Source: Yuukianura sp. NJ FZ-2021 (lineage: Eukaryota). From it: a stretch of 64,000 nucleotides of DNA. Within the stretch, counting starts at the first letter, position 1; every line of letters starts with the position of its first letter. The stretch is from the NCBI GenBank assembly GCA_046563655.1, contig CM102285.1, forward strand, positions 434,001 to 498,000. The letters run 5' to 3'. Shown here in pieces: positions 3,732-58,951 of the stretch. A program made the position numbers and the translations under genes. The notes beneath the pieces are model-generated. The model saw only the letters and a list, made by a program, of their open reading frames with translations, was not told the DNA's origin and did not search any database.

Positions 3732-3759
3732 CCTGTCTACCTAACCTAACCTAACCATT

Positions 3760-30537: not shown

Positions 30538-32806
30538 TCAGTTGAAATTTTTGTTGGACGTGAATCGACTGATCATTTCGTAAGCAACTTTGGGTTGATC
30601 GTATATTACAATATGCCCAGCATTTCGTATGACAAGAAACGTCAAATTTTTTGCTCTCTTCACATACCCAACCACGTTTTTGCCCAACCTCCAAATAGTT
30701 TTGTGTGCTTGTGCATAGACTTTGGCCCCACTCCACCGCATTTTGTTCAACATCAACTCTGATGTCACTGTTGATACGGATATGTCAAGGTTACCGCTGT
30801 ACAGCAGCACTTGATACGTTTGACGTCTTGCGTCAAGGATCTGAGTCAACTTGAGCACTGCGTTTGCGTAGTAGTCAGCTAGAAATCGCTGACCCACGGC
30901 GGCCGCTAAGTAGTCATATTTGTGGGATCCCACGTGAAGTGCTTGACGTAGATAACTTTGACGTACGAATTTGACGTAGCGTTGTCCACGCGGCGTTCGG
31001 GCTCTCAGGACGTTGGCGATAGAGCGTACTCCAGTTGCATTTGTAAAGTACGTCCTTCCTCCATCTCTTTCAATCAAATCGATCAGAATCTAAGTAATTC
31101 ATTAGAAAATTACAAGTAATTCATGTAGTTCATGTGTGAATTTGGCAATTACGCATAATAATAGCTAATAATAATAACAAAAAATAGCTGGAGACAAAGT
31201 ACAAGAGTTAAAAAAAACAAAGGACCGAGTGGGATTCGAACCCACATCTCTTCAATCCGGGAAGCACTTTGACCTCTGAGCTATCAGGCTCAAGTCTACT
31301 AATTCGGGAGTGGGTGTGAGACTGTTCCCAAACGTCACACAAACTAGCTGAATTACATGAATTACCGACTACTAAATTAATACTTACTATCGTATGTAAG
31401 TAATTTGCCAAGTATTTCGTAATTATAATTACAGTATAATTACTGTACTTACGGAATCAGCTTTTTCAAAGTTTTTTTCTTTGATGGCTTTTCTAGCTTC
31501 TTCCTCTTTTGTGTAAAAGTGCTTGAGCTCCCTGTCATCTATGAGACCAAAACTGTAGAGTTGTGCGCCGTACCGCAGTTGACTCACGGGATCTATAAAT
31601 CCATTTCCAATTGCCAATCCTTTCAAATTTATCCGAATTTTCGGATTTTTTCGGTTTTCTTTGTGAATTTTGAGTGCAAGTGCCGGAATAAACTTTCCTG
31701 TGAATTGATTTAAGTAATAAACAGATTAGTTATTTAAAACATTAATGTAGCTGGTGAAATAGTCAAAATTGATTTGATCAAAAGATCGAAACGTGAAAAT
31801 GTCAACAGATACAAATATTAGTAGGTTTTTGGCTAGGCTATAGTTGTTTTTCTTTGACCTTTTCACATTTTGATCTTTTTACTTTTTGACCAAATTGCTT
31901 TTGACCATATTACATATAACCGATATTTGACATTATTGCTACCTACCAGCATATGATTCGCCTGCCAGGTAAAAGTCGTTTTTAGCATAAGTGCGGAACA
32001 ATGTAAAAAATTGTGTGAGGGCAACGTAGAGGTCGCTGGCAGCAACTTCGCTTGTGTTGGCATAAGCCGGGTTATCAGCAAAACTAAACCCTACAAAATT
32101 TTTGGAAAATTTGAAAATAAAATTTGGAAATAGAAATGAAATTTTGAAAATTTTTGTTTCACCTGTTCCAACTGGACTATCAAAGTATATGACAGAGTGT
32201 GTGTTGGTCCAAGCGTAGCGGCGCAGGATTACTTTGTTTTTACGAATTTTAAATGGTCCATTTTCGACAAAAACACCATACAAACCTGAACTCCCCGGTC
32301 CACCTAAATAAGTTATGTTATTTTAATATATTTATATATATTTTTATTATTTATATTACTTATTCATATAAAATGTAAATTCTACGCTACTTGTTAGGAT
32401 ACCTTGTACCCATGTCATGAAAGGCGCATTTTCTCGATTGTTCTGAAACAAATTTTATTCAAAATTTCAAAAAATTGGTAACATAAAAAGAATTTTGTGT
32501 TTCGGTGCCAAAATTTTCAAAATTTTTGAAACTTACTACGGCTGGGAAGAACCAAAAGAATAAGTTTGCGTTGTACTTTGGATTGACTGTTAAGTATCCA
32601 CTGTAACTCTCCACTTTAGTAAAATTTTTAACACGGGCCAATCGTATGGCTTCCTCAAATTTCCCGCTTCTGATGTACGGTGTAAGATATAGAGCGTCAC
32701 CATTGGCTTGAGTCGTGGGAAATTTTTTAAATTCAATTTCAGCACTATTTTTAAAAAGTTGGAAAATGAAAAATAAGGAAAGCTTCTTGGAAAGTAGAAA
32801 TTGCAT
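30538..32806 (-). CDS. Serine carboxypeptidase S10, venom SCP/CPVL-like
   Basis: SYSGYLTVN..NLFFWFFPA, QGGPGSS, ENGPF, DSPVGTG, AGESYAG (Ser), GNLD (Asp), AGHIVIYDQP (His). Confidence 0.92.
31222..31291 (-). mobile_element. tRNA-derived repeat copy (intronic)
   Basis: On -: CCTGATAGCTCAGAGG..CTTCCCGGATTGAAG..GGGTTCGAATCCCACTCGGTCC plus a T-run. Confidence 0.75.
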
Positions 32807-33164
32807 AGTTTCTGTCTTTTGTTTTATTAGTAGAGCAAATGAAGCAGACAAAGAAAAAACTTTCTCCTGAATTTTTATCCGACTTATTATAATTTATTAC
32901 ACATTTATTATAATTACTATTATAATTGCAAGATGTGAAAATTCACACCTAGAATTAACACACTAATTCTAATATCCACAGCGTTTACATTTATATGACG
33001 TTAGTGACATTAATTTGTAATGAATTTCAGAAAAATATTTTTTGAAAAATAAAATTTCATTAAAAAAGAGGAAAATTCAAAACTTTTGACTTAAGGTGTG
33101 CGAACACCCTGGAAACGGGGGGTCAAAATGCGGCTGTAACTCATCAAATGGAAAATGGTCTGGA

Positions 33165-36231: not shown

Positions 36232-39200
36232 TTACCAAACGTAAGGTCTGTGACAATGTGCATCACCTTGGAACCGTTTCCCGCCAATTTTTCGGCATCC
36301 CACGACCGTGTCTGATTCACCACAGCATGAAGGTTTCTCCATTTCGTCAGTGTGGCATTGCCATGGCAACCCACAGTCGCATTCCTCTCCATCGTCAACG
36401 AAACCTGCCATAAAAAAGGAAAAACGACAAGAGTAAGGCATAGGTTCCGTGCGCACAGTGGGGCCGATTGCTTCAAACAACGACAAGCGTTTCGGAGGAA
36501 ACAAATTGATTGTTAGAAAACACACAATTGTGGAGACAAAACAGTCGCAAAATTATCGACATAGCAACCGAAAGTACAGCGCGATTTCAGTTTTTATGAT
36601 TGCCGAACTGGTTTTCCCCTCATAGACGCAATTTTTCACCAACTTCAAAAATCAGTTAAAAATACTAAATTGGTAAAGTGGCACCAAGTGGCAGTCGGAC
36701 TTGGTACGTGATGCTGTCTAGTTTTTATTAAGATATTCAGGTTATCTGTAGGTAATGGAGATTTTTGGAGGATTTGATTTTTGTAAATCCTGATTTTGGC
36801 ATTCATTTTTAATGTAATTTCTAAAAATCAACTTAACGTTTCCATTGACAACCGTGGCGCCGGTTTGAAGCAACGGCCCCACTGTGGTGCGTTAAGCTGT
36901 CGTATCCACACCCTCAGTCAAAATTTTAGAGATTCCTGACGATTAGGAGTCCGTCACCAAGTCAAAATTTTAGAGATTCCTGAGAATTAGGAGTCCGTCA
37001 CCAAGTCAAAATTTTAGAGATTCCTGAGAATTAGAAGTCCGTCCCCAAGTCAAAATTTTAGAGATTCCTGAGAATTAGAAGTTTGTCACCCAGTCAGAAT
37101 GCTTACCATTTCCGCATCTAACAGTGCTTTTCCCACCGGATATGAGGCATGCCGTGTTTGGTGTGGTGAGAAACGCAGTGATGTCTAGTTTTGCACATGG
37201 CGAGTATCGCATAGAGTTTGGGCGCATGCCCATGTCAATTCTCTGGAAAGAGTTCATAACAGTGGGGTTGAAGATGTTTGGTGTGTCGACAACATCAACT
37301 TTGCACCGTGGATTTGAAATGTCATCTTCCCGCGCTCCAAATAAATGGCCCAAAACGTGCATTGTAGACCGGTAAATGTCGAATTCTGCAACTTTATGCG
37401 CATGCTCAAACCCGCTAATTACTCCAACGTTGTGACTTCTCGAACAAATTCCACCTACGAAAGAAAAAAAAAGGAAATTTTGAGTTTTGTATCGTTAATT
37501 TTCAAATGTGTTCAAATTTTAAAATTTTTCCTACGATTGTGTTCTAATTTTTAAAATTTTCCCGAAATTATGTTTAAATTCTTAAGTTTTTCCCGGGATT
37601 TTATTCAAATTTTTAAATTTTTCCCGGGATTTTTGGTTTTGAACTTACCTAAAGTTGAGTAGGATAATTTTGGTGCCAAATTGTGATACACATAAGCCAA
37701 GATGGCACAGCACTTTTTCCCGCCAAATAATTTCGCCAATTGGGCGCGTAAATTTTCATAAGCTCCATTTGGATTGGCTGTTAAGGTTTCGCTTAAGATA
37801 GGTTTTGCGGCTGTGCCGTTAGCGTTTGTTGTTGCTACAGAACTTGAATTTCCCGCGTCTCTTTTGCGTCTCCCGTTTCCTGATTGCGGCTGCGTAGATC
37901 CTGCGTTGGTCGCAGCTGCCTGAGCATCAAGCTTAACTTCGTCAGTCACAATTAAACTTTTGACTGAAATTTGAATATTGTCTGGAGAGTTGTCTCCGTT
38001 GAAATCCGTTCCTGCGAAAATGAACTGCGCAAATGCAAGAATTTTCTGCAGCGCAGCCACGCCCACTCCCACTCCTCCTCCATGCCCGAACTTTTCAGCA
38101 AAGTTAGGCTGAATCCATACACAAATTTCGCAAACAGTGAAATCGTTCCTACAAAATTAAAAAAAAATGAATACAGGGTGCAACGTAAAACCGAACGCTC
38201 GAAAAATAATTTCTTTGTTCCAGAAAAATTCCAAAATATTGTTTTTTGAAAACACCATCACACCTTCTAACTTTCTACAGGAGGCATTTTGGAAATAGCC
38301 AGGATTAGGATAACAAATTCACTACAGTGCATTTTCCTTTTTTATGGAAATTTAAAAAATTCCAAAGTATTGATTTTTAAAAACACCATCACACCTTCTA
38401 ACTTTCTACAGAAGGATTTTTGGAAAAAGTCAGGATTAAGCTAACAAATTCACTACAGTGTATTTTCCTTTTTTATGGAAATTTAAAAAATTCCAAAGTA
38501 TTGATTTTTAAAAATACCATCACACCTTCTAACTTTCTACAGAAGGATTTTTGGAAAAAGTCAGGATTAGGCTGACAAATTCACTAAAGTGCATTTTCCT
38601 TTTTTATGGAAATTTAAAAAATTCCAAAGTATTGATTTTTAAAAACACCATCACACCTTCTAACTTTCTACAGAAGGATTTTTGGAAAAAGTCAGGATTA
38701 GGCTGACAAATTCACTAAAGTGCATTTTCCTTTTTTATGGAAATTTAAAAAATTCCAAAGTATTGATTTTTAAAAACACCATCACACCTTCTAACTTTCT
38801 ACAGAAGGATTTTTGGAAAAAGTCAGGATTAGGCTGACAAATTCACTAAAGTGCATTTTCCTTTTTTATGGAAATTTAAAAAATTCCAAAGTATTGATTT
38901 TTAAAAACACCATCACACCTTCTAACTTTCTACAGAAGGACTTTTGGAAAAGTGACGATTGGGTTAAGAAGATCAGTTCAATGTGTTTTCCTCATTTATG
39001 AGACAAACGAATATCGTTATGTATAGCAAGCGGTCAATGAAATTTGAAACTATTTGAAATTTTAAGTTTTTTTTAAACACTTACTTGCGCATGTCAAACA
39101 AGTTCGAAGGTGCAGCTCCGCTTTTGAGTTTAGTTTTCCAAGAAATATCGTGTAATCCTGAGGCCATGTTTTCCCGCATTTTGCTGTCGAATGAAGGTGC

Positions 39201-40801: not shown

Positions 40802-43800
40802 TTAAAGCAGTAGTTCGCATTCTACTCGATGGTGGAAGCACCATTCAGGTCGAATCGCTTCAGCTGAAATTCCACGCTGAATCAGCCGATCTCTGTGGGC
40901 GTCCAATCGCGGAGCAGCTTCACGCCACGACTGCGTCGGATTGGTCCAAAGGCGTTCCGCCAACGCAGCACCTCGTGGCCACAGTTTCGGTTCCAAAGTC
41001 ATTTCGTCTGTTTCAGTCGACCACATCGTTCCGGTACCGCCAAGAACCTAAAAAACCGCCAAGATTCAAATTTTCAAAAAAAAAAAAATTCCCTGCAGCT
41101 ACGTCGACGTTGTCTAAATTCATGGAAATATTTTTTTCGTTAATATTTTCAAGAAAGAACTAGAAAAAAAACTTGGCTGGAGTGGGATTCGAAACCACAC
41201 CGTACCATCCCGGGGTGATCGCACTCACCATTGACCTGGTATACTCTTTCTCTTAAATCGTGCCTGAACCACCCTATATCCCTCCGCTGACTTATTTTGT
41301 GATTTTGTAAGTTCCAAACTGGCGCTAAATTCAAAAATTTGAATAAGTACCTGCGCAAACGCAGCCGTTTCGTTGTTGTGATGCGTCGCAGCAATGTTCA
41401 TAGGGTCGTTATCATAAATTGTCTTCCACGTTTTATAGTCTCCGCCACAAGATGGGAGGACTGGCTGTTGGTGGAAGTTGGGCGGTCCGAGGCCAATTGG
41501 CGGCAAAAGTCCGGAATTGAAACCACAGTCGAATTGCCAAGCATCAGCATTTGAAAAGATGAGTTTGTAGCCGCGGTTGATCACTTTGGCCAAAGTGGGT
41601 TCTCTGGCGGGACTTTTGATTTGAATGACATACATGTCCGGGTCAAGTACAACTTCGGAGTCACGCAGTATCGTCAGTTTGGAGTCCCAGATGACCGGAG
41701 TTGGTTTTGGCTGTCCGGGCATTACCCCATCGTACAGAGTTTGCAGGGCGCGTGACTGGTATTCCATCCAGAGACGCTGAAAAGTGACGTCATTCGGGAT
41801 CTGTGAAGTGGCTTTGAGCACTTCGTTGACGGCTTCTGACGAATTCCAGCACTGGAAGTTCACATCGTCAGCCCCCATGTGGAAAAAGTCAGAAGAAGCG
41901 AAATTCTCCAAGGCGTCACGGTATATACGACCGAGAATCTAAATTTTCGAATTTTAGAATTTTAGAAAAAAAAAGTTTAACTTTCAAAATTTTAAATTTG
42001 GAAGGGCTTACGATGTAGGTTTCGTTGTTGAGTGGATTGAGTTGACCGCAAGGGGGCTCTGCACAGAACTCCCGCCAAGGCTCTTTGTTCAAACAAACCG
42101 CCAACTCTCCCTTGCCTTCCCGCTCACCTAAAATTTTAAAAATATCTCAACTTACCCCAATTCAAAACTAAATCTTACCACACAACTACCTGAGTAATGC
42201 AAAAACCATCCAACAATATGAAACTGTTATACGATATTATTACATATTAATATTATATATTAACATTATATTAAATTATGACTAATTATAAGTGTTATCT
42301 AGTTTATGTGCGATATAATGCTACCCCCAGTCTCAACTTACCCCATTGCCAGCCATTTCCTGCGCGTGCAGGACCGCCAATTTCCGGTACAACGCGAATA
42401 CCTCGAACCTACAAAAAGAAATTTCAGTTACATACGTTGCATTACTCAAAGTACTATATTGGTGACGTTGTAGTAACGTTGGTAACCATTGGGTAACCCT
42501 TAGTAACCACTGTAACTATGGTTACGAGTAATAACTTTTACCTGTGCATACTCCACAATTTCCTTGATTTCATTGGGGTAGTAAATTTTGGTGGGAGAGT
42601 ATGCTCCGTACAAGGCCATTTTTGGTGCTCTTCTTGAATAGAACGGAAAAGAATGAGCGTCACTAATATGCCAGTGCAGTGAATTCAGTTTGTTGTACGA
42701 CATAGCATCAATCGTGCGTTTGATCATCTTAGTTGAAATGAAGTTATGTCCAGTATCTAAAATTTTGAAAAAAAAGTCAAAATTTTGAAAAATTTGAAAA
42801 TTTTTCAACTTTTAAAGAATTTACCGATCATAAGACCACGGTATGGAAACGCCGGTTCGTCTTCGATGTAACCGTGTCTGATTGTGATGAGACAGTCGCA
42901 CGTATCTTCGTAGTTGATCAGCTGACTCAAGCTTTCCAAAGCATGTCGTGCACCGTAGTATGTCCGGGCGTTAATCTGAGCGGAAAAATTCAAAATTTCG
43001 AAAAAGTTCAAAATTTTGAGAAAAAAAAATCTCACGAAAAGTTAGTGATTAGTACACCGTGACCTCACCTTGACCTCGACAACGCCACTATCGGAAGTGT
43101 TGATTGCAAGAGTATAAGTTTCGTTAGTGTTGAGCGTAAGTCGATCTTCAGCAGTTTCGATACGCATAGATACCATGACCGTAGTTCGCTCAATGTCCGC
43201 TGCATATTTTTTGTCGAACGGATTCGGCTGCTGCTTTCCACTCGCCTCTTTGTAGTTCGGATGCATTCGGAGCAGTTCGGTTTGAAAATTTTTTCCCGCT
43301 TGCTGTAACATGTCACGCACTCGGGCTGATGGCGGATGCGCCCAGTTGATAAACAATCTACAAAAAATCATCAATTCTCAGAAAATCGTTCAAAGAATTT
43401 TTTTTGTTTCAACTTTTTTTTTTGAAATTTTGAAAACTTTGGTGCAATGTATCTGTTGAAAGTAATTTACATAATTTTGAAAGTGGTTTGTGGTTAGAAA
43501 CTGGTTTGGTCGTAAATTACAGCAGGACAGCCCGGAGTCAAAACCAGCTTTTCATGGAGACGTGGAAACTGAGGTTATTGACCTCCGGCGGCTGCGTGAA
43601 GATGGATGTGATTGACCTCTGAAGAAATTGGAGGTCATTGACCTTTGGGTTTTTTTCTGCTTACCTTTGTGGTTTGAACGAGACGAGGTCATCAGCGAGG
43701 TCAACGACCCCAGTGGGTCTTGGCCATAGCGACCGATGTTCTCCGCATAACAGGCGACATTTGGCCAGCGACTGCGTCGTCGGAGAGTCTTCGGGATTCT

Positions 43801-43933: not shown

Positions 43934-45055
43934 TCTAAAAAAAAAAACTTAAACTTTTTTCAAAATTGTTATTTTTCGAATTTCCAAATCGTAGTTTCCA
44001 AAATTAGGATTTCTGAGGAATTCCAAACTTTCTCTCTTGAGAAGCTTCTCAAGCTGAAGAATTCCAGAAAAACGCTCAGTTTTACTTTGAGAAAGAAGAA
44101 GCAAAAATGCACTTTAAAAAAATTTTTTTTTTTTCGAGATTCCCGAATCTTCGATTTCCAAACTGAGGATTTCCGAATTTTCTTTTTTTAGAAGTTTCTC
44201 AAGTTGAAGAATTCCAAAAAAAAAAATGCCCAGTTATTAAATGAAACTGCTTTGTAAAATTGAAATCTGGAAATCTTGAAATTGTCGTTAGGACTACTTG
44301 AAAAGTTTTTGAAAATTTTGAAAAGCTGGTTGTAATTACTTGTAAAATTTCGTTGGTGAGATCGATGAGCGTCTGTGTGAGTATAACCACTACGGAGATG
44401 GTGATGGAACTGATTGCAGAAGTTGAATTGCCGGGAGAAGATGTTGTTTGGAATGGAAGATGAACATGATAGGTCGATGTTCCATGCCATTGGACATTGG
44501 ATGTTGATGGGATGGACCATGATATGTAGAATGGATATGATCTTAGCTGATCTTTCACTTGATGTCATCTTCATCTTCAGCATAAGATGCAAGATTCATA
44601 AGATCAAGGAGAGGTTAAATGACCGGGATCAAGGAGAACCACTCTCCAATTTATACCCAAATAAGCCTCATTCAAAATATTGTACATATTTTTTTTCATT
44701 TCTCCAACAAAATATTATAAGTTATTGAAAAAGTCGAATGTCAACGACCTTTGGGCTTCACTTGTGGCATAGTTGCGTGCGTAACCCAAGTAGAAAATTT
44801 GGCAAAATGATTTTTTGTTGTAAATTCTAATCTTGATAGAATTTTAGGGTTGCTATACTGTATGTGTAAAATAATTTGGACTTTTAAAAGTTCATTGATT
44901 GCCAGTTAACCGTAAAACGGCATCCAGACATGGCAATTTGTTTTTTCAAAACAAATTTATTTATTACGTGTTAAGTGATCAACTGATCAACTAAAATCTC
45001 AAAGCTGACAAATTTTGGCAACTTGTACTATTTCTGAAGTTGATTTTTGGCACCT

Positions 45056-47403
45056 TTAAAAAAGTGTGCTTCCAATGACTGCATTCAAAATCTTCGCCAC
45101 AACTTCAACTTGTGGAGCATCCTTTAGAGCTATATATTAAAATATAGTTAAAATTAAGTTCATATTAAATGAAATACTTGAAAACTGTTTAAAAAACTTT
45201 ACATGGTTTCAGTGTAGAAAGGCCTGTCCAATCCCAACATCCATTGTTGGTTCTAAATGGAAATAGATCAACTGCAAACGCAGCAGCTCTTGGAAAAAGG
45301 ACAATGATGTTATTGGCGTCGGCTGCTTGAAAATATCCGCCTTCCGCACCCCACACTTCTCCAATTAAGCTATGAAAAAAACGTAAAAAAAAGAGGATTT
45401 TTTGGCAAGTTTTTACCAAGGTTGCTATAGCAACCAATTCCATTTTCTACAACAGGTTATCCAATAACTCAGCGTTTTCCAAAAATTTGCTTCAATCAAC
45501 ACTTGGCACGAATTCCATTTGGATAACATACAAACAATTAGCGTACAACCGAGTATTTGATATTTTCAAACAAATAAAACTTCAAGTTATTGGACAACCT
45601 GGTGTAGAAAAAACACTTAATTTGTTTACAACGGTTAGTGCATGGGAAATTAAATTGAAACAAATTTAGTTACTTTGAATAGGAGGTCTGTGCGCATCCA
45701 TGGAAAGCCACATGCAATTTGCACGTAGATGTCGCTGCCTGACATGCCGCTGGAACGTAGATGCCACCGCTGCCGTTCATAAAGTCATCACTGGGATTAC
45801 CAGTAGAAGTGAAAGGACTTTGGTAAAATGTAGACAGTGTGCCAGTGGTAGGTGCAGAGGAAGTCGTGACAATGTATGCCGAACCGTAGAAATGTGAAAA
45901 CATGTCAAAAACTCCTTCGTAGTTACAATTGGCGAGGCCATCAAAAGCAAAGTTCGCAATTGGAACGGCACATGCTGGTCCATAGTTGTCTGTTGGCTGT
46001 TCAAATAGTTGATCAATGCAATTCAATTACAGTTCTCAACGAATTCCTTCAACATTACCCACACCTTTTCCCAAGGTTTGTAAACCAGAAAATAGTATTT
46101 TGCTCAACATGTTAGGCATTAACTCGAATTTTTTAACTTTTGTTAAAAAACTTGGATCACCCTGCCCTTCTTGCCTATGGCAATGATTTATACGTTATCA
46201 TTAGACATGAGAAAAATATTTAAGTAAATATTTTGGAGTTTTTGACAAAAAATATTTAATATTTAAATATTTTGCAAGTTTTTGGTAAATATTTTTCTCA
46301 TGTTAGGGGATGTTAGTCATGGGATTGGAGGAAAAAATTGTTGGGGGCGAGATTTGCCGAAAACAGTACTTATTGCCTAACCTGTTAAAGGAAATCTATT
46401 TTGTTGCTATAAGAACTTTGCCTTTTCCAATTATTGTATTAGGCAATACAAATTCACTTACCGTGCAGTGAGTTGCGTAGAGTGTGTTGCTGTATTTGAC
46501 ATCAGACCCAAAATACCTGCCCATGTCAGCGACGTAGTCACTGTACTTCAAAGCTACCAAAAAAATTTACTTTTTTTAGAGAAACACGTCCTATTTACAT
46601 ACTATAGAACATTAAAATGTTTTTCATACAAGGCGGGTTGATGGGATCAAGCAAACCCTGAAACACATATGTCTTTGAACCATTGAGGTTTGAAATGGGA
46701 TCAATTAACCCTTGATTTGACAGAGTTCTGGCTTGTTGTTCCAGGAATTCCGCAGTTCGCCCGGTTGGAAGTGGTGGCAACTCTTTTACTGCATTGATCA
46801 CATACAATGAAAGAACGGTGCGGTTAGTAACGTTGTATAATGCGCCAAACGGTCCTGAAATTTAAAAAAGACAATCTTTGTTGGTAACCAGGAATACTTT
46901 GTGAGAAATATTTTACAAGACAGCTTTATGCGCTACAAGATTCGGGGAACACTTTGGACGATGCATCGGCTTGGATTACTATCCAAGACGATGCATCGCT
47001 AACACTAAATTGAGCAAAAGAGATTCAACAACGTCTGTGACAAATATTTAGCGGAAGTCAGCTAACATCACCAATAAAACAGTAGATTTAAAATTGAAAA
47101 TTATATCATGTTATTCATATATAAACTATATAAATTATGTTAAAATATATAAATTATATATTCTATATAAATATTCCTTGGTCAAAGTCACTTACCACCA
47201 GCATAAGCACCACTGCCCATGATCTTAGAAGAGTACATATAATGCATCATGGATGTCATGAAACCTCCACTAGATAGACCAGAAGTTGTAATCGTAGTTG
47301 TATCAATTTGGCCATGCGAGACATTTGCAAGGTCTACTATGTTATATGGAAAAGTAGCTGCAGAGAACTGCAACAGAGACAAAAGTATCGTTAACCTTGG
47401 CAT
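45056..47403 (-). CDS. Secreted poly(3-hydroxybutyrate)/PHA depolymerase-like hydrolase, 6 exons
   Basis: Exons 47403-47196, 46854-46630, 46553-46462, 45996-45674, 45369-45203, 45129-45056 join in frame; SGLSSGG, QGLLD, ATH, YVPAAC, CKLHVAFHGC, ADANNIIVLFP, NGCWDW. Confidence 0.9.
45417..45612. mobile_element. CAAGG-family MITE, right TIR truncated
   Basis: Starts CAAGGTTGCTATAGCAAC; inner inverted match CAGGTTATCCAATAACT / AGTTATTGGACAACCTG. Confidence 0.6.
46072..46420. mobile_element. CAAGG-family MITE in a depolymerase intron
   Basis: Right end TATTGCCTAACCTGTTAAAGGAAA..TTGTTGCTATA is shared with 23661-23710; flanking duplication CCTTTTCC. Confidence 0.75.
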
Positions 47404-48968
47404 GACTCGGCTTTAAAATGTATCGGTTTTAACGAAAAGCTTTTTTTAGCAGTGAAAAGTGTTTCGATATGAAAGTTTTAAAACTAAAACGGAAAGCCCA
47501 ATTCTATTATTTTTTGAAATCAAGGCACAGGATTGAAGAGTGACCGCATTTTCCCATTTGATGCTGTATATTTATAATAAACTTTAGTATAGCGTTTCTT
47601 ACCAGTACGTGCTCAACGTGAGAAGAATGTTGGGGCAGTAATTATTCAAAATTTAGACAGGCTGCAGCGGAGTTTGGACTTAATTTCTATATAAAATTCG
47701 CATACTTGTTTCAACGATAGTGCAAACTGCAAGGTTAAATTGCAGACAACTGGCGGGAACTTTTATAACCTTTAGCGCTTGCCCTTAGCAGCAGAATAAT
47801 TATTACAATATGTTTGGTTAGCGACTAAAAATAGCTGAAGCTGTGGCAGTCAGATGGCGAGTGGCGACAGTCAGTTGATCTGTACGTGACGACGCAACAT
47901 AATTTTGTGAAAAGTAGCTTTAGAACGTGAGAGCATTTGATATTACGATTTATTTAGTAACTGCACTCCAGACAAAACTGAATTTATAATCATAGTGGCT
48001 ACTTGAAGTTTTTTTTGCATTGGCACATTTGATTTTTATTCGAGAAAAATTTAATACAATTATTTAATAACTTAAGTAATAAGTATAGTTTTTTTTTTGC
48101 CTGTAAGGACTCCTTTAACGATTTGGTACAGCGTCATTCTCAAGCTATGTATGTTAAAAATTAAAATCGATTTGTTCGAATAAAACTGATGACACTGAAA
48201 GCATAATTTCTTTCAACTGTTTCTGACATTACTCTCAAAGCATGGTTTTTCGTTTTCAAGCAAAGAAAGCAAAAAAACAGCAAAAAGCAATGCATTGACT
48301 TAAAAAAAAAGCTTTTCACGAAATACCAATCGTTTTTTTAAATTATTCAAGAATTCAAATAACCATGGTTACAAAGCGGGTTCTCCCGTTTAGTCCAACC
48401 AACAAATGATCTCGGTGATAGCGACGTTGATGTAAGGTTTGACCCTCGTTGATGTACCCACACAATGTAGCCACTTGTGTGGGTACAATAGGTGGCCGTA
48501 CTTCGGTGGCAACGTTTGTTGCTGATCTAAAGCTAAACAAGCCTAAGTTAAAGTAATACACAAGTGTCCGATTGTCGTGGCCATTCATTATCGCCACTTT
48601 GCGGGTACAGCGACGCTCGTGAATCCTTACTCCAACCAGTTTCCGTTCATTGTTCTTTCTTTTGTGTCTTCGTTTTCTTGATTCATTCCGCATTTCGCTA
48701 ATGAATTAGTTGTTGTCGCTCATTTTATCTTTTTCGTTTTTCTTTCTTTGTCTAGTTAATAATTACATTTGCAGGCTTTGGTAAGGAATCCTTTTCAGAT
48801 TTTCATAGAGCACGGACTTATTTGTTGCGAAGTTGAAGAATTTAAGAGTCGATCTTTTCGCATCAGCGCTACTCGCTATACATTGAATTTATTTGGATCC
48901 TCTTGATTTGTTTGTGTTGTTCCAGGTTCGATTCGATTGTCTTTGATTTCCCAATTGATAGTTGAAAG

Positions 48969-51900
48969 ATGGACGATAGAACAGATGAAGATATGGTTGA
49001 AGATCGCGAACCAGATGAGACCATGCGGTTCTTCACGGATCAGAAATCTAAGAAACTATCGGCAGTAAACAGTGCCAAGGATTTTGAAGCTGGAGGGGAC
49101 GGCTTAGATGCTTTGTCGACGAGTAAGGCAGAATCGGAGGACATGGCAGAAGGAACCTGCTTGACCCTGCGAGTACTACAGACAGTATTCACTTGTGGAA
49201 AGAAAAAAGGGCTCTGGGAACCCTCTCAAGGGAACGTCTTCAAGTCACATGAAGTTGAAGAGACCAAGTACCCTAGGATCCTTAGAATTCTGGAGTTCTG
49301 GAACCTACTGGACATCATCTTTGTGGTCACTTGCTACTTATCGATCTACTTATTCTTCTTGTCTGTTGGATTTGTGATGAAGAGTAAACTACTTTGGGGC
49401 GTCATCCATATCAACAATGCTCTTTACACCACTGGCCTGTTTGCTCAGTGGCTCCGAGTCCTAATTAGTTCCAAGTATGCCAAGACTAACCAAGGATACA
49501 CGAAGACCGACGTCGTCATGGCCTTAGTCACCGTCTTTCCACTGGATCTCATCTTACTTGTCATCTACAGCTTGAACAAGAAGGAAGTGGACACACCGCT
49601 TGACAGTCTCATCATTTCCTTCTCCAGAATCAACTACTTGTTCCGAGTCTACTACATCTCTAAGTTCTTCTGTAAGCACTATAACACTAATTAGTCGATT
49701 AAAGATCGATTAACGACTAACTTAACATTAGCAGCTGACTATAACCGTTGTATGTGCTTATGTTTAGCAACATGGGACAATCAGCTGGTGATCGGCGACT
49801 ATCTCATGTTCATCATCCGGACAACCCTGTACACGTTATCCCTGATCCACGTCTTTGGCTGTATTTGGCACTTGGTCGCCTGCAAGGTAAGTAGTCACGA
49901 ACGATCAGCTGATCAAGTGATGATTAATTGCGAAGATAATTAATTAACTTATTAATTGTACCTAGAGCTTTACTGGCAAGCATTTCTTGATGACTCAAGA
50001 TGAGGCAACGAGAGACGTCTGTGAAACAAATAGCTGGATTCAAATCCTCCTTCGTGAAAATCGAGCTCCCCTGCTGGATCATCCTAATCTCAACGTTCTA
50101 ATTACACATTACTTGGTGTCCATATACTGGGCAACTACTGTAGCCTTTGGACTGGGGTAATGATTATCAATAGAGCTATCGAAATTCGATACTTTATAGT
50201 TTATCGAGTGTTATAGTGATCTTTATCGCTTATCGAGTTTTTTTTTTTGTTGAACAGCTTGGGAGACATCAAGGTTCACCTAACTTCTGACTTGGAGATT
50301 ATGGTTACCGCTATGACACAAATAGCTGCCTGGATCTTTACACTTGCAATTGTAAATGGAACTTTGACTTCACTACTCGTAGAGGGAGACACTGAACGGG
50401 AAAGTTACTTGACTAGACGATTCGCCATCAAAAATTATTTGGTAAAGAAAATCCTTTACTACTCAAATTACAAAAGAGATATTAAAAATATTTGAATATT
50501 ATATTATAATATTTGTATTACATATTATATAAAAATTGTCGTTGTTGTGTTTGTAGGACTTTAGTGCCATCAGGAAACAAATTGTGGCAGACGTTGCCAA
50601 CTTCTACGACTACTTGTGGCAACGTCGCAAAGGAATTATGAACTTGGAGCTGATTGACGAGATGCCAAGGACCATGCGCGCCGAAGTGTTTTACGACGTC
50701 AACAAATTCGTTTTTGATCAAGTGAGACAATAATTGTGACTATTTGGAAATCTACGGTAATCTTATAATTTTTTTTTATTTTGCTTATACAGCTTCCTTT
50801 GTTTCATGATATGGACCAAGCTTTCATGATGAATTTGGCAGTTTACGTTGAACACACTTTTCACCTGAATGGGGAAATTTTGTACAAGAAAAACGATACT
50901 GGAGACAGAATGCGTTACGTTCTCAAAGGATTTCTGGAGGTAAGTTCAAATTCAAAAACTTCCAAAATTCATAAATTAGCATGAAAGACCTCAAAAATGG
51001 TTTGTTTTTGACAGATTCTATGTGATGATGAGTCCAGAGTAATCGCAAACATTCGAAGTGGATCAGCAATTGGAGAAATCCACTTGATCCATCCGTACCC
51101 ACATGTTGCCACCGTGAGATGTGGATCTGACTGTGACATTCTGGTTCTGCGCAAGTCCAGTTTCAAGCAACTCATGAACTCTTATCCAGAACACTGGGAA
51201 ACCTTCAGAGAACGAATGCAAAAACGATTTGACGATTCTGAACTTCTGCTTTCTCTCTGCGACAAGCACAATCAGTATCCTCGAGCTTTCAGTAAAGTTG
51301 ATGCCAAGTTGAGGCCGTTTGGCCATGACCCGGTCACTGGCCTGCCCAAACGCCCTGGATCCGATCCTGACGTTGATCCAGTCGAGAAGGTCACGCCGCT
51401 TGTTCCTGTCGCTGAGGGGTCACGAACTTTTAGAAACATTGGTAAAAATTTTGAAGGAAAAGCAACATTTCTGTAAAAATTTCGAATTTTGGATGTATTT
51501 TATGATTTTTTTTTAGATGATTTTGACGGAGTTTCACTTCAAGATGAGGCGATTCAGAAGATGTCCATGATTCGATCAAAAGAAACCGAAAAGTAAGTTG
51601 AAATTGGTTGAACTTGAAAGTTCAAATTTCGAAAGTATGAAATTTTGAAATTGTGTTTCAGAGCTGGGAAGACCGATAAGCGTCAACGAACGCTAGAAGA
51701 GGAGGCGTTCAAAGCACTGGAAACGGACGTCATGAGGGCTGGATCGCTTGCGAAGGATTTAGAGATTCCACGGCCTCCACTTTTCGTCACAGCCCCAACA
51801 ACTTTTTCAACAAAATCCATCAGTTCGGACACCCCTGACTTATTGAAGCTCCCGATTCTAAATCGGCTGAGCTCCAACGTGATGCTGCTGGTGTTTCAAA

Positions 51901-54900
51901 TCTTTGTTGTCGTCATGGCAATGGCTACAATGTGGTACTACTTGTACGCCGTCGCATTCCGATCTCGGGGAACCGTCATAGCCACAATCGCTTTCCATGT
52001 CACAGACATCATCTTCGCTGTCAACTTTTGGGTCGAGATGACCCAAATCGTCATCATGCCACAAAGTAAAAAATTTCCAGAACACATTTTTTAAAATTTT
52101 TCAGAATTTGAAAATGAAACTTAGACTTCTGCTCTGTCTCTTTACAGAAACGCTGGAAAACAGAAAGGAAATTTTGATCTACCGACTCAAGAAACCGGCA
52201 ACATATTTCGAATTTTGTGCGTTTCTGCCGTGGGAATACTTGATGACTCCACTGTGCGCTGGAACGATGTTCAATTTCAGCGATCCTCGAAAAGAGTTCA
52301 TGTTCACTTGTTTCAAACTGAATCGCTGCTTGGAGCTTATCTTTGTCTCGAAAGTCGTCAAAGAGCTGGAAGCAATGCAGTTCATGAGCGTCATGAAAAT
52401 GTTTCTGGCCAAGTTTTTTGTCGCGACGATCTTCAGCATCCATCTCTTCGCTGTCATTTTCCGACTCGTGATGGAATATGTCTACGGATGGTAAGAAATT
52501 TTTTTTTAAATTTGAAATGTTTCGAAAATATGAAAATGTTTATGAAATTTTTTTGTTTTAGGAAAGCTGCTCAGGAGTATGACTATGAAATCCCGTTTTA
52601 CTGGGCGTCTCAAGTGTCAACGGCGACAGGATTCGGTGACATGCTGTACACCGTTGATCTGGAAGTTGTCAATCTCATTTTCTCATGTATCGGTGGAACC
52701 ATTGTCGTTACTTACTACGGAGCCAAAAATGGAGCGCTTTTGGCCAACTATGCTCGACGAAGGTGAAATTTTGAAAATTTTGGGAAGTTTTTTTTTCAAG
52801 AATTTTTAAATTTTGAAAATCCTTTCAGGGTTTGCTTCAAACAGACTTACTACTGCGTCAAAACGTTCATGCGTCAACGCAAGTTTCCTAAGCCACTGGC
52901 CACTCGTGTGCTGGACTACTACAGCCTCCAATGGCGAGCTCACGAGGGAACGCTCATTCCGACGGACCAGTCAGTGATCTGGGATGCTCCGGAGTCCATT
53001 GTCCAGCATGTCACGATGGAGCAAGCACAGAAGTTCTTCGCCAGGGTTCCACTTGTCCAGGTTTGAGAGACAAAGAACGAGAGTGTAAAAAAAAGTTTGG
53101 GCCGAGTGGGATTCGAACCCACATCTCTTGTATCCGGGAAACACTCTAAACCTTTGAGCTATCAGTCCCGAGCGTAGAAAGTTTTGAGGGATAGGCGGCT
53201 ATCCGACGGAATATTTATGAAATTTGGATTTGTAATTTAAAAAAAAATGTTTTTTTTTCAGCATTCTGGACTCCAGACGCAGCAGCGATTTGCAAAAGCG
53301 CTGAAGCAGTACTATGTTCCACCAGGCGAAACGCTTTTGTACCCGTATGACAAACGGCGGGAACTTTTCTTTTTAGTTCGAGGTTTTTGTAAAGTGATGA
53401 AAGATGGAGACACCGTGGGAACGCTGAGTGCTGGAAACTACTACGGACTTCCCGGCCTTCTGTTCGGTGTGAACAAAGAATTTGAAATTGTGTCAGAAAC
53501 TTACTGTCTTTTCTTCTGCTTGCTGTTCGACGATTACGTCAAACTTGCCAGGAGCAATCACTGCATTTTGCGGGAGTACAAAATATTTCGGGTATTTTTA
53601 AAATTTTACTGTCAAAGTTCAAAATTCAACTCACATCGAATTGTAGAAGTTTACAAATTGACTGATTTCGCGATTATCTTTGAATTTTCCTTTTTTTGAA
53701 GTTTTGTTTTAATTTTGAATAGGGCGAAGCTGCATTTCGAAAATTTCGTCGTCGCAAGCCCGGGGCTTCTGAAATTTTGGGAGGTGAAGAATTACCACGG
53801 TACTACGAAAAGTTGGTCCAAGGTGAACAGGAGAACAGAAGTGCGGGAATTGACGAAAACGATGAAAAAATGCGCGTAGCAGAGGTCAAAATGGAAATTC
53901 AAGCTGAAAATGAAGTTGATGGATGTTGGGGTCACTTGAGATGGGTCAAGTAAGTTAACATGACAAGGTGACATCTTTTACAGCTCAGTTCTGTGAGGTC
54001 ACGGGCTGACATGGCTTGAGATACAAAGAATGACAGTGCACAACAAAAATAATGCACCAAGTGGGATTCGAACTCACGTCTCTGTATTCCGGGAAGAGCT
54101 CTAACCATTGAGCTATCAGGCTCTACTCGGACACATGATGGAATTGGAATGCTACCATTATTTACAGGCATTGTCTTTCCATGCACCTCCATTCTTGTGA
54201 CCTTTGACCTCTGCCACAGTTGGAAGTAACAAAGGTCAAAGGTCGACTTTTAAATTTAATTATAAATTTTATAAATTATAAGTATTATTTTTGTTTTAAA
54301 TTTTATTACTTTTTCTTAGGTACCTTATGTTTTTTCCGATATTTGATCCTCTTGGAAAGTTCATTCGGATTTGGACAACTTTTCGGACGGGTGTGGCCGT
54401 GATTGCGACGATTTTCTACACAGCCCAAGCCTGCTTTGCGTTCCATCCTGGATGGTGCTTCCTGACGACGCTCGTTCTGGATATCATCGCTTGGACGGAC
54501 ATGTGAGTCGAAAAACAAGCTAAATTTTTTTTTTTTTTTTTTTTTCGAAATTTTGAAAGTTTGTATCGAAATTTTGAAATTTAAAGGTACATCATGTATC
54601 ACGTTGGTTATTATGGAGACGAAGGTCAGCTAATCAGCGAACCAATCATGACAGCCAAACACTACATCCAAGGTTCCTTCTTTCTTGATTGGATCGCTTC
54701 CTGTCCCATTGACTACTTCCTGTTACCAATCGCTGCAAATGGACTGAATCTATTTGGACCACTTCCGGTCAAATCATACGCTGGAAATATCTGGATCCAG
54801 CGTGTCGCTTTATGTCGCCTTCCAAGATGTCTCCAGATCTACCGTATCTTCCTTGCTGGCGGAGTCATTGAGAAGTTTATCTTCAACAGTCTGACGTTCA

Positions 54901-57900
54901 TTACGCTTGTGGATGTGGTTCCACTGATGTTCCTGTTTATGCATGTCACCACTTGTATACTGGCGCTGATGAGCTGCAATTGGGCCACTGAGGTCAACCC
55001 ACAGTGTCCAGAAACTAGTCTTTTTCTACACTTCAAACCGCTCAATCGCTACAAGTTCGCTGGAAATACTTCCAAGCATCTGGAAGCACCGAAGTACTAC
55101 GACATCTGTAAGTCTGAAAAAATCACTTTTTTTATTCAAGACTTATGACCTAAGACCTCAAGACCTTACTCAAGACCTAACCTTGAACTTTGACCTTTAG
55201 TTGACCCGTTCACACTTTATGTGACTGGACTGTATTGGACGATGCAAACAGCACTGAGCGTTGGGTTTGGCGATTTCATGCTGTTTGATGAGCGACATTA
55301 TTTCCCTACTTCTAGCAGAATGTTTGCAGTTTGTGTCATCATTTTAGGTATTTTGAAATTTGTCATTTTAAAAAATGAAATTCTGAAAATGTAACTTGAA
55401 ATTTTCAATTTTATGATTTTTTTTTAAAATTGAGGTACTGCTATCAGTGTGTACCTGGGAGCAAAGCTAACAGCTTGCATGGTTGGAGAGGATTCAAGAC
55501 GAATTGCGATTCGAGAGCAGATGAAAGTCGTTTTCGATTTTTTGGGACAGTATGCCGTTCGGAAACCGATCCAAAGGTTTGAAAATCAAAATTTCGAAAA
55601 AGGAAAAAAAAACATATTTTTTTTTTGCAGAGAATGTTAACAAACGTTTTGTTTTTGTGCAGACGTGTTCGTGAAGTGTACTTCAGTGCATGGGACAAAA
55701 CCAAGGGAATTTCACCTTCCGAGCTTTTTGTTGCTCTTCATCCAACTTTGAAGGCTGATGTGACCAAACAACTTTACGAGGTTCATCTACGAAAGGTGAC
55801 ACATTTTCAAAATTTGTCGGAGTTTTGTTAGAATTTTGAAACTTTTTGGAAAATTTTGAAACTTTTTATTAAAAAAATTCAGGCACCACTACTCAAAGAC
55901 GTTGACGAAGCAGGAATTCGAATGCTGGCGTCGAAGTTAGTGGAAGTGTTTTACCCCGAGGGGGAATTTATTATGAAATTAGGTGACCTCAACGACGATA
56001 TCTTCCTCATTTCTACTGGAGTTGTGATATGCTTTGGTGTTGGAGGTCAAGTGCTCAACTACTTAGCACCTGGCAGCATCATCGGTGAAATCTCTGCATT
56101 GTTTGAAGTTCAGCGCCTTTTCAGTGCCATCGCAGCGACGGATGCTGACGTTTTCGTGTTTCGGAGAGAAGATTTCATGGAGTGAGTCAAAAATTCAAGC
56201 TACTTTTTCAAAATTCAAACATTCAATTTAAAAAAAGATGATGTCATGTCATTTTTTTTTTTTTAGATTTTTGAACATGTACCCGAATCTTCGGAAGGCT
56301 TTAGAAAATGCTTGTCTGGTTCACTACAAGGAGACGATGGAAGGTGCTGCGGCAGCATCAGGAGTGGAAGTAGTACTGCCAGTAGTTGAGGAAATTGGGA
56401 ATTCTGATGTTGCTATGCAGCTGAATACTCCCAGAGTAGAGTCCATCCCAACTGAAAACTTGGACTACGCAGACACCAACCCAGACAGATCTTACAAAGA
56501 TCCACTTCGAGTGATACTGAAAACAAAAGCGGAAGTGAAAGATGAGAAGATTGATGTAGATGAAGGGAGTGACAGAAACAGCAAATGGTGGTCGTTCTTG
56601 CTAACGTTTGGCAGAATTCCGAGAGATGAAATGGGGTTGATCCATGTCCATCAAGAGTAAGTCAAACGTCAAAAAAGTTTGAATTTTTTGCCACTTTTTC
56701 AGGAGAAAATGACCTGAGTTTTGTTTAATCCTGATTGTTTTGTGTTTTCAGAAAGAACAAGTGTAACCTTTTAGACTTTGTAGTCAACCCGACATGTCCT
56801 CTGTGTTCAAAAGCAAGTTTCGTTTGCATTTGGCTCCTCTTTACTTCGTTTTCTTGTGCACTTGCGTCGTATGATTTGGCATTCCGAGTGGACGGTCCAG
56901 AACTGAACACACAGGCGAAGAAAGACAACGCAATTGTCATGGGACTCAAGATTTTTGTGGAGATTTTCTTCCTGATTCGATTCATTGGCAACTTCCATCT
57001 CGGTTTTGTAGATGACGAAGGAGTCATGATTACCGAAAATAGACAAATCATTCGCAAGTAAGCAAAAACATAGCAACAATTTGTTATAATTTTAGTCTTT
57101 TTTAGTCTCATAGTATTTTATAGTCTTTTTTTAGTATTTTATGGTCTATATAATTTTAGTATGTTTTCTTAGATATGCTACTCGACTGGACGGATTAGTT
57201 GTGGATCTGATAAGCCTACCGTATTGGCTCATAACGATGTATGTCTATCCTCCGCTATCTCCAATCTTCAACGGATTGCAACTGTTTCGAATGGTAAGAA
57301 AATGAATATGACCTTGAGAACCTTTGACCTTGACCTTTGTCCTTGAGTGACCTTTGACCTTGACTTTGAATGTTTTCGCAGGTTTTGTTTTGGCGATACA
57401 TCAACGAAACTGAAACGGAATTGCGGATGCAAGCTTCGATGATAAAAATTGTGAAAATCAGCATCGTTTTGTGCTTCATCTTTCATTTTTGTGCGTGTTT
57501 TTGGTACATGATAGCCTGCAGTGGCATGACCTGTCAACCGGACTCTTGGATGGCCCGAGCTTTGGAAAGAATCAAACTGGACTTGAAACGTAATGGAAAC
57601 GTTTTGAAATTTATGATTTTTTGAAATGTTTAGTTGTGTCGTGTTAATTTACGTTTAAGTTGAGTTATGTTCATCGGTAATGGAAATTTTTGGATTCTGT
57701 TTAGCTTCGGACCCTGAACCGTCAATTTCTCTTGTATCACGGTACTTCATGTCGGTGTTCTACGTAACAACGGCCATCACTTTCACAGGACTGAACTACA
57801 TCGAACCAGCTCAAGTCAAAGAAATTGTTGTGACGATCATATTCATATTCACAACTGTGTTTGTCATCGGTATTCTCATTGGAGAGATTTCACAGTGTCT

Positions 57901-58951
57901 CGCATCCCAAGTCGCTGGGAAGATGCATTATGAACACCAACTTTCAGTGATCCAGGTAAAAAGCAAGCTGCAGTTGAAACTATCAATTACTAACTGAATT
58001 AGTTCGGATTAATTGAAACTGTGATTAATTTAGGAACACTTCATGGCTCTTGGTCTGCGTCGACCAAAACTCAAAGAAGTTGGAAGTTACTACAAACTGC
58101 TTTGGCAAAAGTGTAGAGGCTATCCTTACTCCCAAATTTTTGCTGACATTCCGTACCCTCTACAAGCTGATATTGCTTATGCCATCTATGGAGCAAACGT
58201 CAAAAATGTAAGTTACAATTAAAATTGTTAATTGATTAATTGAATTACTAATTGAAGATTAACTTTTGTTGATTTCAGTCACGATTGTTAGGAAAAGTGG
58301 ACGACACGATCATTCGTCAACTCTGTGCAAGAGTGAGACACGAAGTGTATCTGCCGGGATGTCGTGTAGTCCGAACCGGAGATGTGTGCGATGCAATGTA
58401 CTTTATCAAACGTGGAGAAATCGTTATTCTGGATGAAAATCAAAATTTGGAACTCTGTGTTGAAATTCTTTATGAAAATGAATGTTTTGGAGAGGTAAGT
58501 GGATTACCTTTTTTGGAAAATCAAAAATTTGTGTTTTTGATTTCGGTTTTCCATTTTTTAGGTCAAACTGCTGCTACCGAAGGAACAATATCGTTTTTCC
58601 TACGTCGCTCGACTGGAGAGTGAAGTTGGAATTTTACGACGAGAGGACTTGGATGATGTGATGAGCAACTACCCGATTCTGCAGGGAGACTTGATGGACA
58701 AAGCCAAGAAAATCAAGAACCACCGGACAACTCTACGTGAAGAAGAGAGTCGTCGGAAGAGAATTGAACTAGGAATTGAGGATATGCCGGACCAACCGGA
58801 GCAGGACGGACATGATGACCTTGGAGACGAACCGGTAGCTATGGAATTCACAAGAACAGGGGCAGGTCAACGGTTATCGGCCTCAGTTGTACCGGTCAAA
58901 GATACTGGAGGAATAACTGATCCACAGGATCCAACGAAAAAACAAAAGTGA
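48969..58951 (+). CDS. Four-repeat (pseudotetrameric) cyclic-nucleotide-binding-domain channel, CNGK-like
   Basis: Four TM-pore-C-linker-CNBD modules in one frame; pores YWATTVAFGLGLGD, YWASQVSTATGFGD, YWTMQTALSVGFGD, FYVTTAITFTGLNY; CNBDs at ~50793, 53262, 55883 and 58279. Confidence 0.85.
53099..53170 (-). mobile_element. tRNA-derived repeat copy (intronic)
   Basis: On -: GGGACTGATAGCTCAAAGGTTTAGAGT..GGGTTCGAATCCCACTCGGCCCA plus a T-run. Confidence 0.75.
54053..54123 (-). mobile_element. tRNA-derived repeat copy (intronic)
   Basis: On -: GAGCCTGATAGCTCAATGGTTAGAGC..GAGTTCGAATCCCACTTGGTGC. Confidence 0.75.

Follow-up and report, generated by a model that had tools for sequence, protein, structure and literature searches.

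Does an animal carry, in its own nuclear genome, an enzyme for digesting bacterial storage polyester, and if so, how did it come by the gene? This question is raised by a gene at positions 45056..47403, on the minus strand, of a 64-kb stretch of DNA (contig CM102285.1, positions 434,001 to 498,000), the whole of which we call the window. A preliminary description, made from the letters of the stretch, had read this span as six exons encoding a secreted depolymerase of polyhydroxybutyrate (PHB) or, more broadly, of polyhydroxyalkanoates (PHA), and had proposed either old horizontal transfer or patchy retention as its source. On the sequence comparisons set out below, we consider it likely that the gene encodes a secreted, single-domain type 2 PHB depolymerase, that it belongs to the nuclear genome of a springtail-like animal, and that it is a divergent paralogue probably inherited by descent.

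The gene model comprises six exons and five introns, and every intron begins with GT and ends with AG. The exons join in frame over 1089 nt to give a product of 362 amino acids (aa) followed by a TAA stop codon. The ATG begins at 47403 and the last base of the stop lies at 45056, and the span and in-frame splice given in the preliminary description are exact. Exon 1 (47196..47403) holds the ATG, a signal-peptide-like segment (aa 1-16) and the lipase box GLSSG (aa 42-46). Exon 2 (46630..46854) holds a variable region and the predicted catalytic Asp139, exon 3 (46462..46553) the predicted catalytic His173, exon 4 (45674..45996) the central region, which ends in the motif HGC, and exon 5 (45203..45369) the motif NGCWDW. 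Exon 6 (45056..45129) encodes the C-terminal helix region and the TAA (45056-45058), and it aligns to the C-terminal segment of a protein from the fungus gnat Bradysia odoriphaga (P0004), as well as to bacterial and eukaryotic homologues. All of these features lie on the minus strand. A tblastn search of the 362-aa product against the 64-kb window recovered only its own six exon pieces, and a second copy was not found there.

Assignment to a family comes first from the NCBIfam model NF050059 (type 2 short-chain PHA depolymerase), which is the best family for exon pieces 1, 2, 4 and 5. The four pieces match it colinearly, with exon 1 at profile positions 5-42 (32.8 bits, E = 4.6e-8), exon 2 at positions 67-104 (18.5 bits, E = 1e-3), exon 4 at positions 142-234 (65.5 bits, E = 4.9e-18) and exon 5 at positions 237-283 (37 bits, E = 2.3e-9). 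Comparison by hidden Markov models was among the checks proposed in the preliminary description, and in it the type 1, medium-chain and general esterase models rank below NF050059 for every exon piece that scores; the type 1 depolymerase model matches the exon 1 piece weakly. Taken together, the exon matches lie well outside what chance would produce. Pfam was less informative. A scan of the six exon pieces gave no family above its cut-off, the best being BD-FAE at a sub-threshold 14.7 bits, and none of the six pieces matches PF10503 (Esterase_PHB). Among six homologues scanned with PF10503, only the Solemya protein P0027 gives a match, at 17.9 bits against a cut-off of 23, and P0004, P0045, P0006, P0051 and P0035 give none.

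The only meaningful match of the exon pieces among solved structures is the PHB depolymerase of Penicillium funiculosum (Protein Data Bank entries 2D80 and 2D81). Exon 4 matches this enzyme at E = 5.6e-9, with Cys276 aligned to C230, and exon 5 matches chain residues 243-289 at an E value of about 1e-3. Exon 1 falls on chain residues 8-45 of 2D80 and places the serine of GLSSG where it is expected, at an E value of 0.26 that is not significant when taken alone. These three exons are colinear with the structure. Exon 2 has no match to a PHA depolymerase (PHAD) among the solved structures, only a chance-level match at E = 0.34. When ten eukaryotic homologues (eight with organism names and two without) are combined into a profile, the result aligns with chain residues 3-314 of 2D80 at E = 2.3e-77. 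From the colinear match to 2D80 we infer a circularly permuted alpha/beta-hydrolase fold for the product. The preliminary description had compared the order of the motifs with that in bacterial type II domains and in the P. funiculosum enzyme, and the colinear exon matches to both NF050059 and 2D80 bear this out.

The individual motifs also lie where they had been reported. GLSSG is followed by QGLLD (aa 135-139), ATH (aa 171-173), HGC (aa 274-276) and NGCWDW (aa 325-330), and the lipase box is therefore N-terminal to the oxyanion residue, which is the type 2 order. On the minus strand of the window, the codon of Ser44, the predicted nucleophile, occupies 47272-47274, that of Asp139 occupies 46646-46648 and that of His173 occupies 46468-46470. 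His274 is encoded at 45700-45702 and Cys276, the predicted oxyanion-hole residue, at 45694-45696; the codons of Cys327, Trp328 and Trp330 fall within 45228-45239. The serine, aspartate, histidine, HGC and CWDW of the window protein all stand in invariant columns of the ten eukaryotic homologues (nine of ten for the serine column). In the alignment and profile of these homologues, the catalytic columns correspond to S19, D101, H135 and C230 of the 2D80 chain, which we take to be S39, D121, H155 and C250 in precursor numbering. The N-terminus resembles a secretion signal in a hydropathy scan, in keeping with the signal peptide proposed before: Arg3 precedes a hydrophobic core at residues 4-13 and then Ser-Ala-Ala at residues 14-16, and nine-residue Kyte-Doolittle means reach 1.9-2.1 across residues 3-14.

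Whose gene is this? An exon of a GH20 beta-hexosaminidase gene, 3 kb away, is 82% identical to the enzyme of the springtail Folsomia candida, whereas the next named match, from Thrips, is only 39% identical. Because of this difference, the gene most likely belongs to a springtail close to Folsomia. The same GH20 exon is 89% identical to a metagenome protein, and its F. candida counterpart is a chitooligosaccharidolytic beta-N-acetylglucosaminidase. The exons that flank the PHAD gene encode NUDIX, ABC-transporter, serine carboxypeptidase S10, reprolysin, GH20 and cyclic-nucleotide-binding segments. The PHAD coding sequence has a GC content at third codon positions (GC3) of 0.40, and its neighbours range from 0.385 to 0.53; its introns are AT-rich, at 15-31% GC. 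Contamination is unlikely because the flanks are eukaryotic, the neighbouring exon matches F. candida at 82% identity and the GC3 value lies inside the range of the neighbours. The earlier reading of an animal-encoded, intron-bearing gene is thus upheld, and we reject a bacterial contaminant in particular, since the gene has introns, lies among eukaryotic neighbours and resembles its host in composition.

The same observations bear on whether the locus might be a paralogue that is silent or in decay, or else an assembly artefact or contaminant. We regard this as very improbable. It is true that no RNA run containing the stretch appeared among the sequencing runs listed, which leaves room for a silent copy. 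However, no stop interrupts the 362 codons spread over the six exons, all five introns are canonical, and none of the catalytic residues has been lost. The gene also sits between eukaryotic genes on one 64-kb stretch, with which its introns have repeats in common. Four DNA runs of one sample contain 39-98% of the sampled words from the stretch, although these may be the source data rather than independent support. We reject a pseudogene in view of the intact frame and catalytic residues.

The intron repeats deserve description in their own right, given that the preliminary description had spoken of host miniature inverted-repeat transposable elements. Intron 4 contains an inverted repeat at 45443..45611 with 36-nt arms that are 83% complementary, and a 73-nt segment at 45414-45486, which overlaps its left arm, resembles 23642-23713 at 77% identity. 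Intron 3 contains a perfect 18-nt inverted repeat at 46205..46303, and an 89-nt stretch of this intron (46332-46420) is 88% identical to 23622-23710. The region 23445-23713, which adjoins the ABC-transporter exons, is therefore related to parts of both PHAD introns and is probably a dispersed host repeat. The claim of host elements is thus borne out in part: both introns have inverted repeats and stretches that recur elsewhere in the window, and their status as mobile elements is putative.

The existence of PHB depolymerases in animals is not a new finding. The paper of Zeidler et al. (2026, Nat Ecol Evol; PMC13642032) appeared in August 2026 and features springtails prominently among its examples, and the following points are taken from those portions of the paper and its supplement on which we draw. 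The survey lists 195 PHADs of domain type 2 in 66 species of gut-bearing animals drawn from nine phyla, and names the P. funiculosum enzyme as the closest characterised enzyme to them. Both the catalytic triad and the oxyanion hole are described as completely conserved, and about 75% of the enzymes predicted carry signal peptides. In F. candida there are as many as 14 homologues. Recombinant enzymes from a sponge, two annelids and F. candida (two homologues) degraded PHB and its copolymer PHB/PHV to monomers, and all animal PHADs assayed so far degraded PHB. Supplementary Table 2 includes 14 entries for F. candida, entries for Allacma and Orchesella, four for Bradysia coprophila and three for B. 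odoriphaga. The authors argue that the animal genes were inherited from protist ancestors, with loss thereafter; they note that bootstrap support for the uniting node is only 43.8%, and they conclude that detritus feeders digest microbial storage polyester (PMC13642032). The novelty that had been attached to the present gene is thereby removed, since the family was already reported from 66 species and two F. candida enzymes had been assayed. The accompanying caution that invertebrate homologues might be known was well placed, and the digestive role suggested at the outset fits the published conclusion for detritus feeders.

What does the window gene add to this picture? It is probably a divergent paralogue of the known animal PHAD family. 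Its closest named relative is the B. odoriphaga protein HA402_004907 (P0004), with identities of 58% to exon 4 and of 50% across 216 aa. When 1.84 billion representative sequences were searched with a profile whose alignment omitted the fragment P0009 and the short pieces from exons 2 and 3, there were 1870 matches at E <= 1e-3 and only nine at E <= 1e-30. When the 30 top matches were looked up, nine proved to be organism-named, and all nine are eukaryotes (seven animal and two protist): Artemia, Solemya, Owenia (two sequences), Cyprideis, Darwinula, Strongylocentrotus, Trimastix and 'Eukaryota sp. TZLM1-RC'. The last of these may belong to the Provora, a group that Zeidler et al. discuss. Because no F. 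candida protein was seen among the exon 4 matches in the protein database search, we infer that the database searched contains no annotated F. candida protein that is a close orthologue of the window copy. In the ESM Atlas, P0004 returned only family-level, mostly bacterial clusters and a neighbouring ABC exon returned only 'Eukaryota', and neither gave taxonomic resolution.

To place the gene among its relatives, two maximum-likelihood trees were calculated. The first had 72 rows drawn from 116 candidates, including 40 of the 83 unnamed matches of 300-450 aa; P0173 was excluded from it, and two bacterial rows (L031 and L038) were removed as wrongly extracted open frames with a branch length of 6. 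The second, more careful tree had 34 rows, made up of ten named bacteria, ten named eukaryotes, the window protein and 13 unnamed matches. In both trees the window protein stands among animal and protist sequences, apart from the sampled bacteria. In the careful tree the ten named bacteria split off with support of 98/92, the window protein and that of B. odoriphaga form a pair with support of 100/100, and this pair falls inside a 13-row group that contains all eight named animal sequences. A phylogeny against fungal, bacterial, protist and animal sequences had been proposed in the preliminary description, and with bacterial, protist and animal sequences represented, the maximum-likelihood placement of the gene is on the animal and protist side.

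Exon boundaries provide a further line of evidence on descent, as read from protein models rather than from genomic DNA. The homology of P0009, P0034 and P0053, which are three of the four near-clade fragment open reading frames, breaks off precisely at residue 282, where the complete residues of exon 4 end, and the homology of P0009 and P0053 begins exactly at residue 176, the first residue of that exon. In an Artemia gene model that belongs to the main animal clade, a 103-aa unit begins at the residue that starts exon 4 of the window gene and ends two residues short of the end of that exon. Such common boundaries favour common descent over a separate import, because it is hard to see how a gene brought in separately from bacteria would come to have the same exon 4 limits as a crustacean model. 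We believe, then, that the gene family in animals was probably inherited by descent and has been kept patchily in feeders on microbes or detritus, and that the window gene is probably not a recent bacterial import. Of the two origins first suggested, patchy retention is the better reading. Old horizontal transfer is disfavoured because in both trees the gene stands with sequences of animals and protists, and because it has boundaries in common with the crustacean model, even though one statistical test, given below, does not formally reject a placement next to the bacterial clade (p 0.18). As a separate observation on the Artemia sequences, the A. franciscana models P0022 and P0172 carry the 103-aa unit in tandem, with 100 of 103 residues identical and with the boundaries of one exon; this could be a real exon duplication or an artefact of assembly or annotation.

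A number of points weigh against the interpretation that we prefer, and they fall into three groups. The first concerns divergence. The NF050059 scores of the exon pieces sum to 153.8 bits against a cut-off of 280 (the pieces were scanned singly, exon 3 gave no score and exon 6 was outside the scan), whereas the Solemya and Cyprideis homologues reach 327 bits. In a local search against the eukaryotic profile, the joined protein scores 249 bits and ranks 102nd of 105 full-length sequences, for which the median is 334. Apart from the 50% identity with B. odoriphaga, the window protein is only 27-35% identical to the other retrieved homologues, and the first cysteine pair, present without exception in the ten homologues compared, is missing from it. 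The second group concerns the trees. The support for the 13-row group is only 81/92, the stem branch of the window and Bradysia pair is long, at 1.4-1.7 changes per site, and a tree constrained to group the pair with the bacteria is not rejected by the approximately unbiased (AU) test (lnL difference 8.35, p 0.184). Because of the long stem and this test result, the tree alone is not decisive. Moreover, the trees contain no labelled fungal sequence, and their bacterial sample is mostly Burkholderiales. The third group concerns scope, in that the springtail assignment depends on the single neighbouring GH20 exon and the enzyme role of the window gene is a prediction.

The signs of divergence could be explained if the springtail and fungus-gnat subclade had kept the family's architecture and changed its job, having shifted to another ester or polyester so that it is no longer a PHB depolymerase in practice. 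Candidate substrates would include cutin-like or suberin-like polyesters, other microbial polyesters, or the feruloyl and acetyl esters of plant and fungal walls. The low profile scores and the missing cysteine pair leave room for such a shift, and the length of the stem branch is in keeping with it. Furthermore, the next-best solved relatives of the eukaryotic family profile are feruloyl and acetylxylan esterases, and the up to 14 paralogues reported for F. candida in the part of the survey drawn on here (PMC13642032) would give room for functional divergence. However, no residue of the triad, HGC or CWDW has been lost, each piece that scores has NF050059 as its best family, and every animal enzyme assayed in that part of the survey degraded PHB. 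We therefore consider a change of substrate unlikely, though it deserves to be kept in view, and we continue to favour a PHB depolymerase.

The long stem and the AU test also bear on how the gene reached hexapods. One could imagine that an ancestor of springtails acquired it horizontally from a bacterium or a fungus, or that it passed horizontally from a springtail lineage into Sciaridae, the fly family of the fungus gnats. The closest named relative is indeed a sciarid fly protein at 50% identity, with all else at 27-35%, and the two Bradysia species are the only insects in the part of Supplementary Table 2 that covers species A to O (PMC13642032). There is also precedent of a kind, because the part of PMC11665903 considered here argues for transfer of terpene synthases from mites to Sciaridae and cites a hypothesis that some P450 genes of B. 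coprophila originated in springtails or mites. The AU test, for its part, is compatible with a position beside bacteria. Several observations run counter to this explanation. The maximum-likelihood trees put the pair among animal sequences, exon 4 has the same boundaries as in the Artemia model of the main animal clade, and the composition of the gene matches that of its host. In addition, 50% identity between a springtail and a fly is also compatible with old orthology under constraint, and the B. odoriphaga contig may be misassigned. On this evidence horizontal transfer seems quite improbable to us, and descent within animals is the explanation that we carry forward.

Given that the family is already published, it seems appropriate to ask what value another member may have. 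Animal digestion of bacterial storage polyester is a route for microbial carbon into soil and sediment food webs, and animal PHA depolymerases bear on the breakdown of PHA bioplastics. To these general concerns the window contributes a further intact copy, carried by another genome of springtail type. What is fresh is confined to its membership of the divergent subclade whose nearest named relative is a fungus-gnat protein, which bears on the diversification of the family in hexapods and on the debated gene traffic between soil arthropods and Sciaridae. Among the sequences compared here, no other named species appeared in the springtail and sciarid subclade. HA402_004907 is not among the three B. 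odoriphaga entries in the examined portion of Supplementary Table 2, and because of this absence the published survey may have missed the subclade. Equally, the subclade may already stand in other parts of the same supplement, namely Supplementary Table 7, Text 4 or Figs 15-20, which include an arthropod tree (PMC13642032). It is a speculation, and in our judgement a rather doubtful one, that the window gene and HA402_004907 represent a fast-evolving PHAD subclade perhaps unsampled by the survey, reflecting a transfer from soil arthropods to Sciaridae, a new polyester substrate, or both.

If the preferred interpretation is correct, the working of the enzyme can be sketched from the conserved residues and from the assayed relatives in the portion of PMC13642032 cited above. 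The signal peptide would be cleaved near Ala16, and the protein would be released, plausibly into the gut lumen. Ser44 of GLSSG, activated by His173 and Asp139, would attack an ester bond of denatured PHB or its copolymer PHBV from lysed bacteria, while the backbone of Cys276 in HGC would help to form the oxyanion hole. Trp330 of CWDW would line the substrate crevice. The reaction would be expected to yield 3-hydroxybutyrate as monomers and oligomers, and the animal could then absorb these.

Several other features of the locus and its surroundings can be recorded here. Pattern scans pick out two candidate regulatory elements on the minus strand: AATAAA at 44960..44965, a possible polyadenylation signal that begins 91 nt past the stop codon, and TATAAA at 47571..47576, a possible promoter element 173 nt 5' of the ATG. 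Directly downstream of the PHAD gene lie the GH20 beta-hexosaminidase exons (41225-43377, minus strand). Also on the minus strand are S10 carboxypeptidase exons (30538-32893), a reprolysin-like metalloprotease exon (37075-38156) and a NUDIX hydrolase (2633-3740), and several secreted hydrolase genes lie within 15 kb of the PHAD gene. On the plus strand, the region 48966-58951 contains a run of cyclic-nucleotide-binding exons, among them 51012-51476 and 58273-58623, together with hydrophobic segments like those of channels, and it resembles two or more tandem genes for CNG/HCN-like channels. Two further regions have unusual composition on both strands. The segment 15159-16340 is open in several frames, with a 387-aa repeat rich in Glu, Lys and Ala on the minus strand, and either a coding repeat of low complexity or an artefact of composition could explain it. 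The segment 26000-27250 consists of tandem repeats with long open frames and a peptide repeat of the Gly-Arg-Arg-Lys...Glu-Asp type; it falls between the outer limits of the ABC-transporter exons and is perhaps intronic.

How, finally, does the window gene compare with known systems? It resembles the animal PHADs of Zeidler et al., in the parts of that survey considered here, in being a single-domain, type 2 enzyme with a triad and an oxyanion cysteine, predicted to be secreted and encoded by an intron-bearing nuclear gene (PMC13642032). Owenia, ostracods and the sea urchin S. purpuratus are both among the top named matches of our search and among the taxa named in that paper. Unlike the published set, which includes assayed enzymes, the window copy comes from another species, is at present a sequence only, and is missing the cysteine pair. 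The B. odoriphaga protein HA402_004907 has the same C-terminal architecture as the window protein, but it comes from a dipteran assembly and is a partial model of 234 aa, from which the N-terminal half with the serine and aspartate is missing. The P. funiculosum enzyme, whose structure (2D80/2D81) was reportedly described by Hisano et al. in 2006, shares the order GLSSG, Asp, His, HGC and CWDW and is likewise a single domain with no separate substrate-binding domain; it differs in being fungal and is about 38-40% identical over the best-aligned exon only. The bacterial type 2 enzymes of the dPHAscl group (Massilia, Variovorax, Acidovorax, Polyangia) share the catalytic domain and the order of the motifs, and across the full domain they are about 30-32% identical. 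However, their genes are without introns and form the separate clade supported at 98/92, and many of the proteins, at 405-579 aa, continue through a linker into a C-terminal substrate-binding domain, whereas the window protein stops at the catalytic domain. More distant still are the PF10503 proteins, the type 1 depolymerases and the feruloyl esterases, alpha/beta hydrolases that also carry HGC and CW(D/N)W and in which the order of these elements is permuted.

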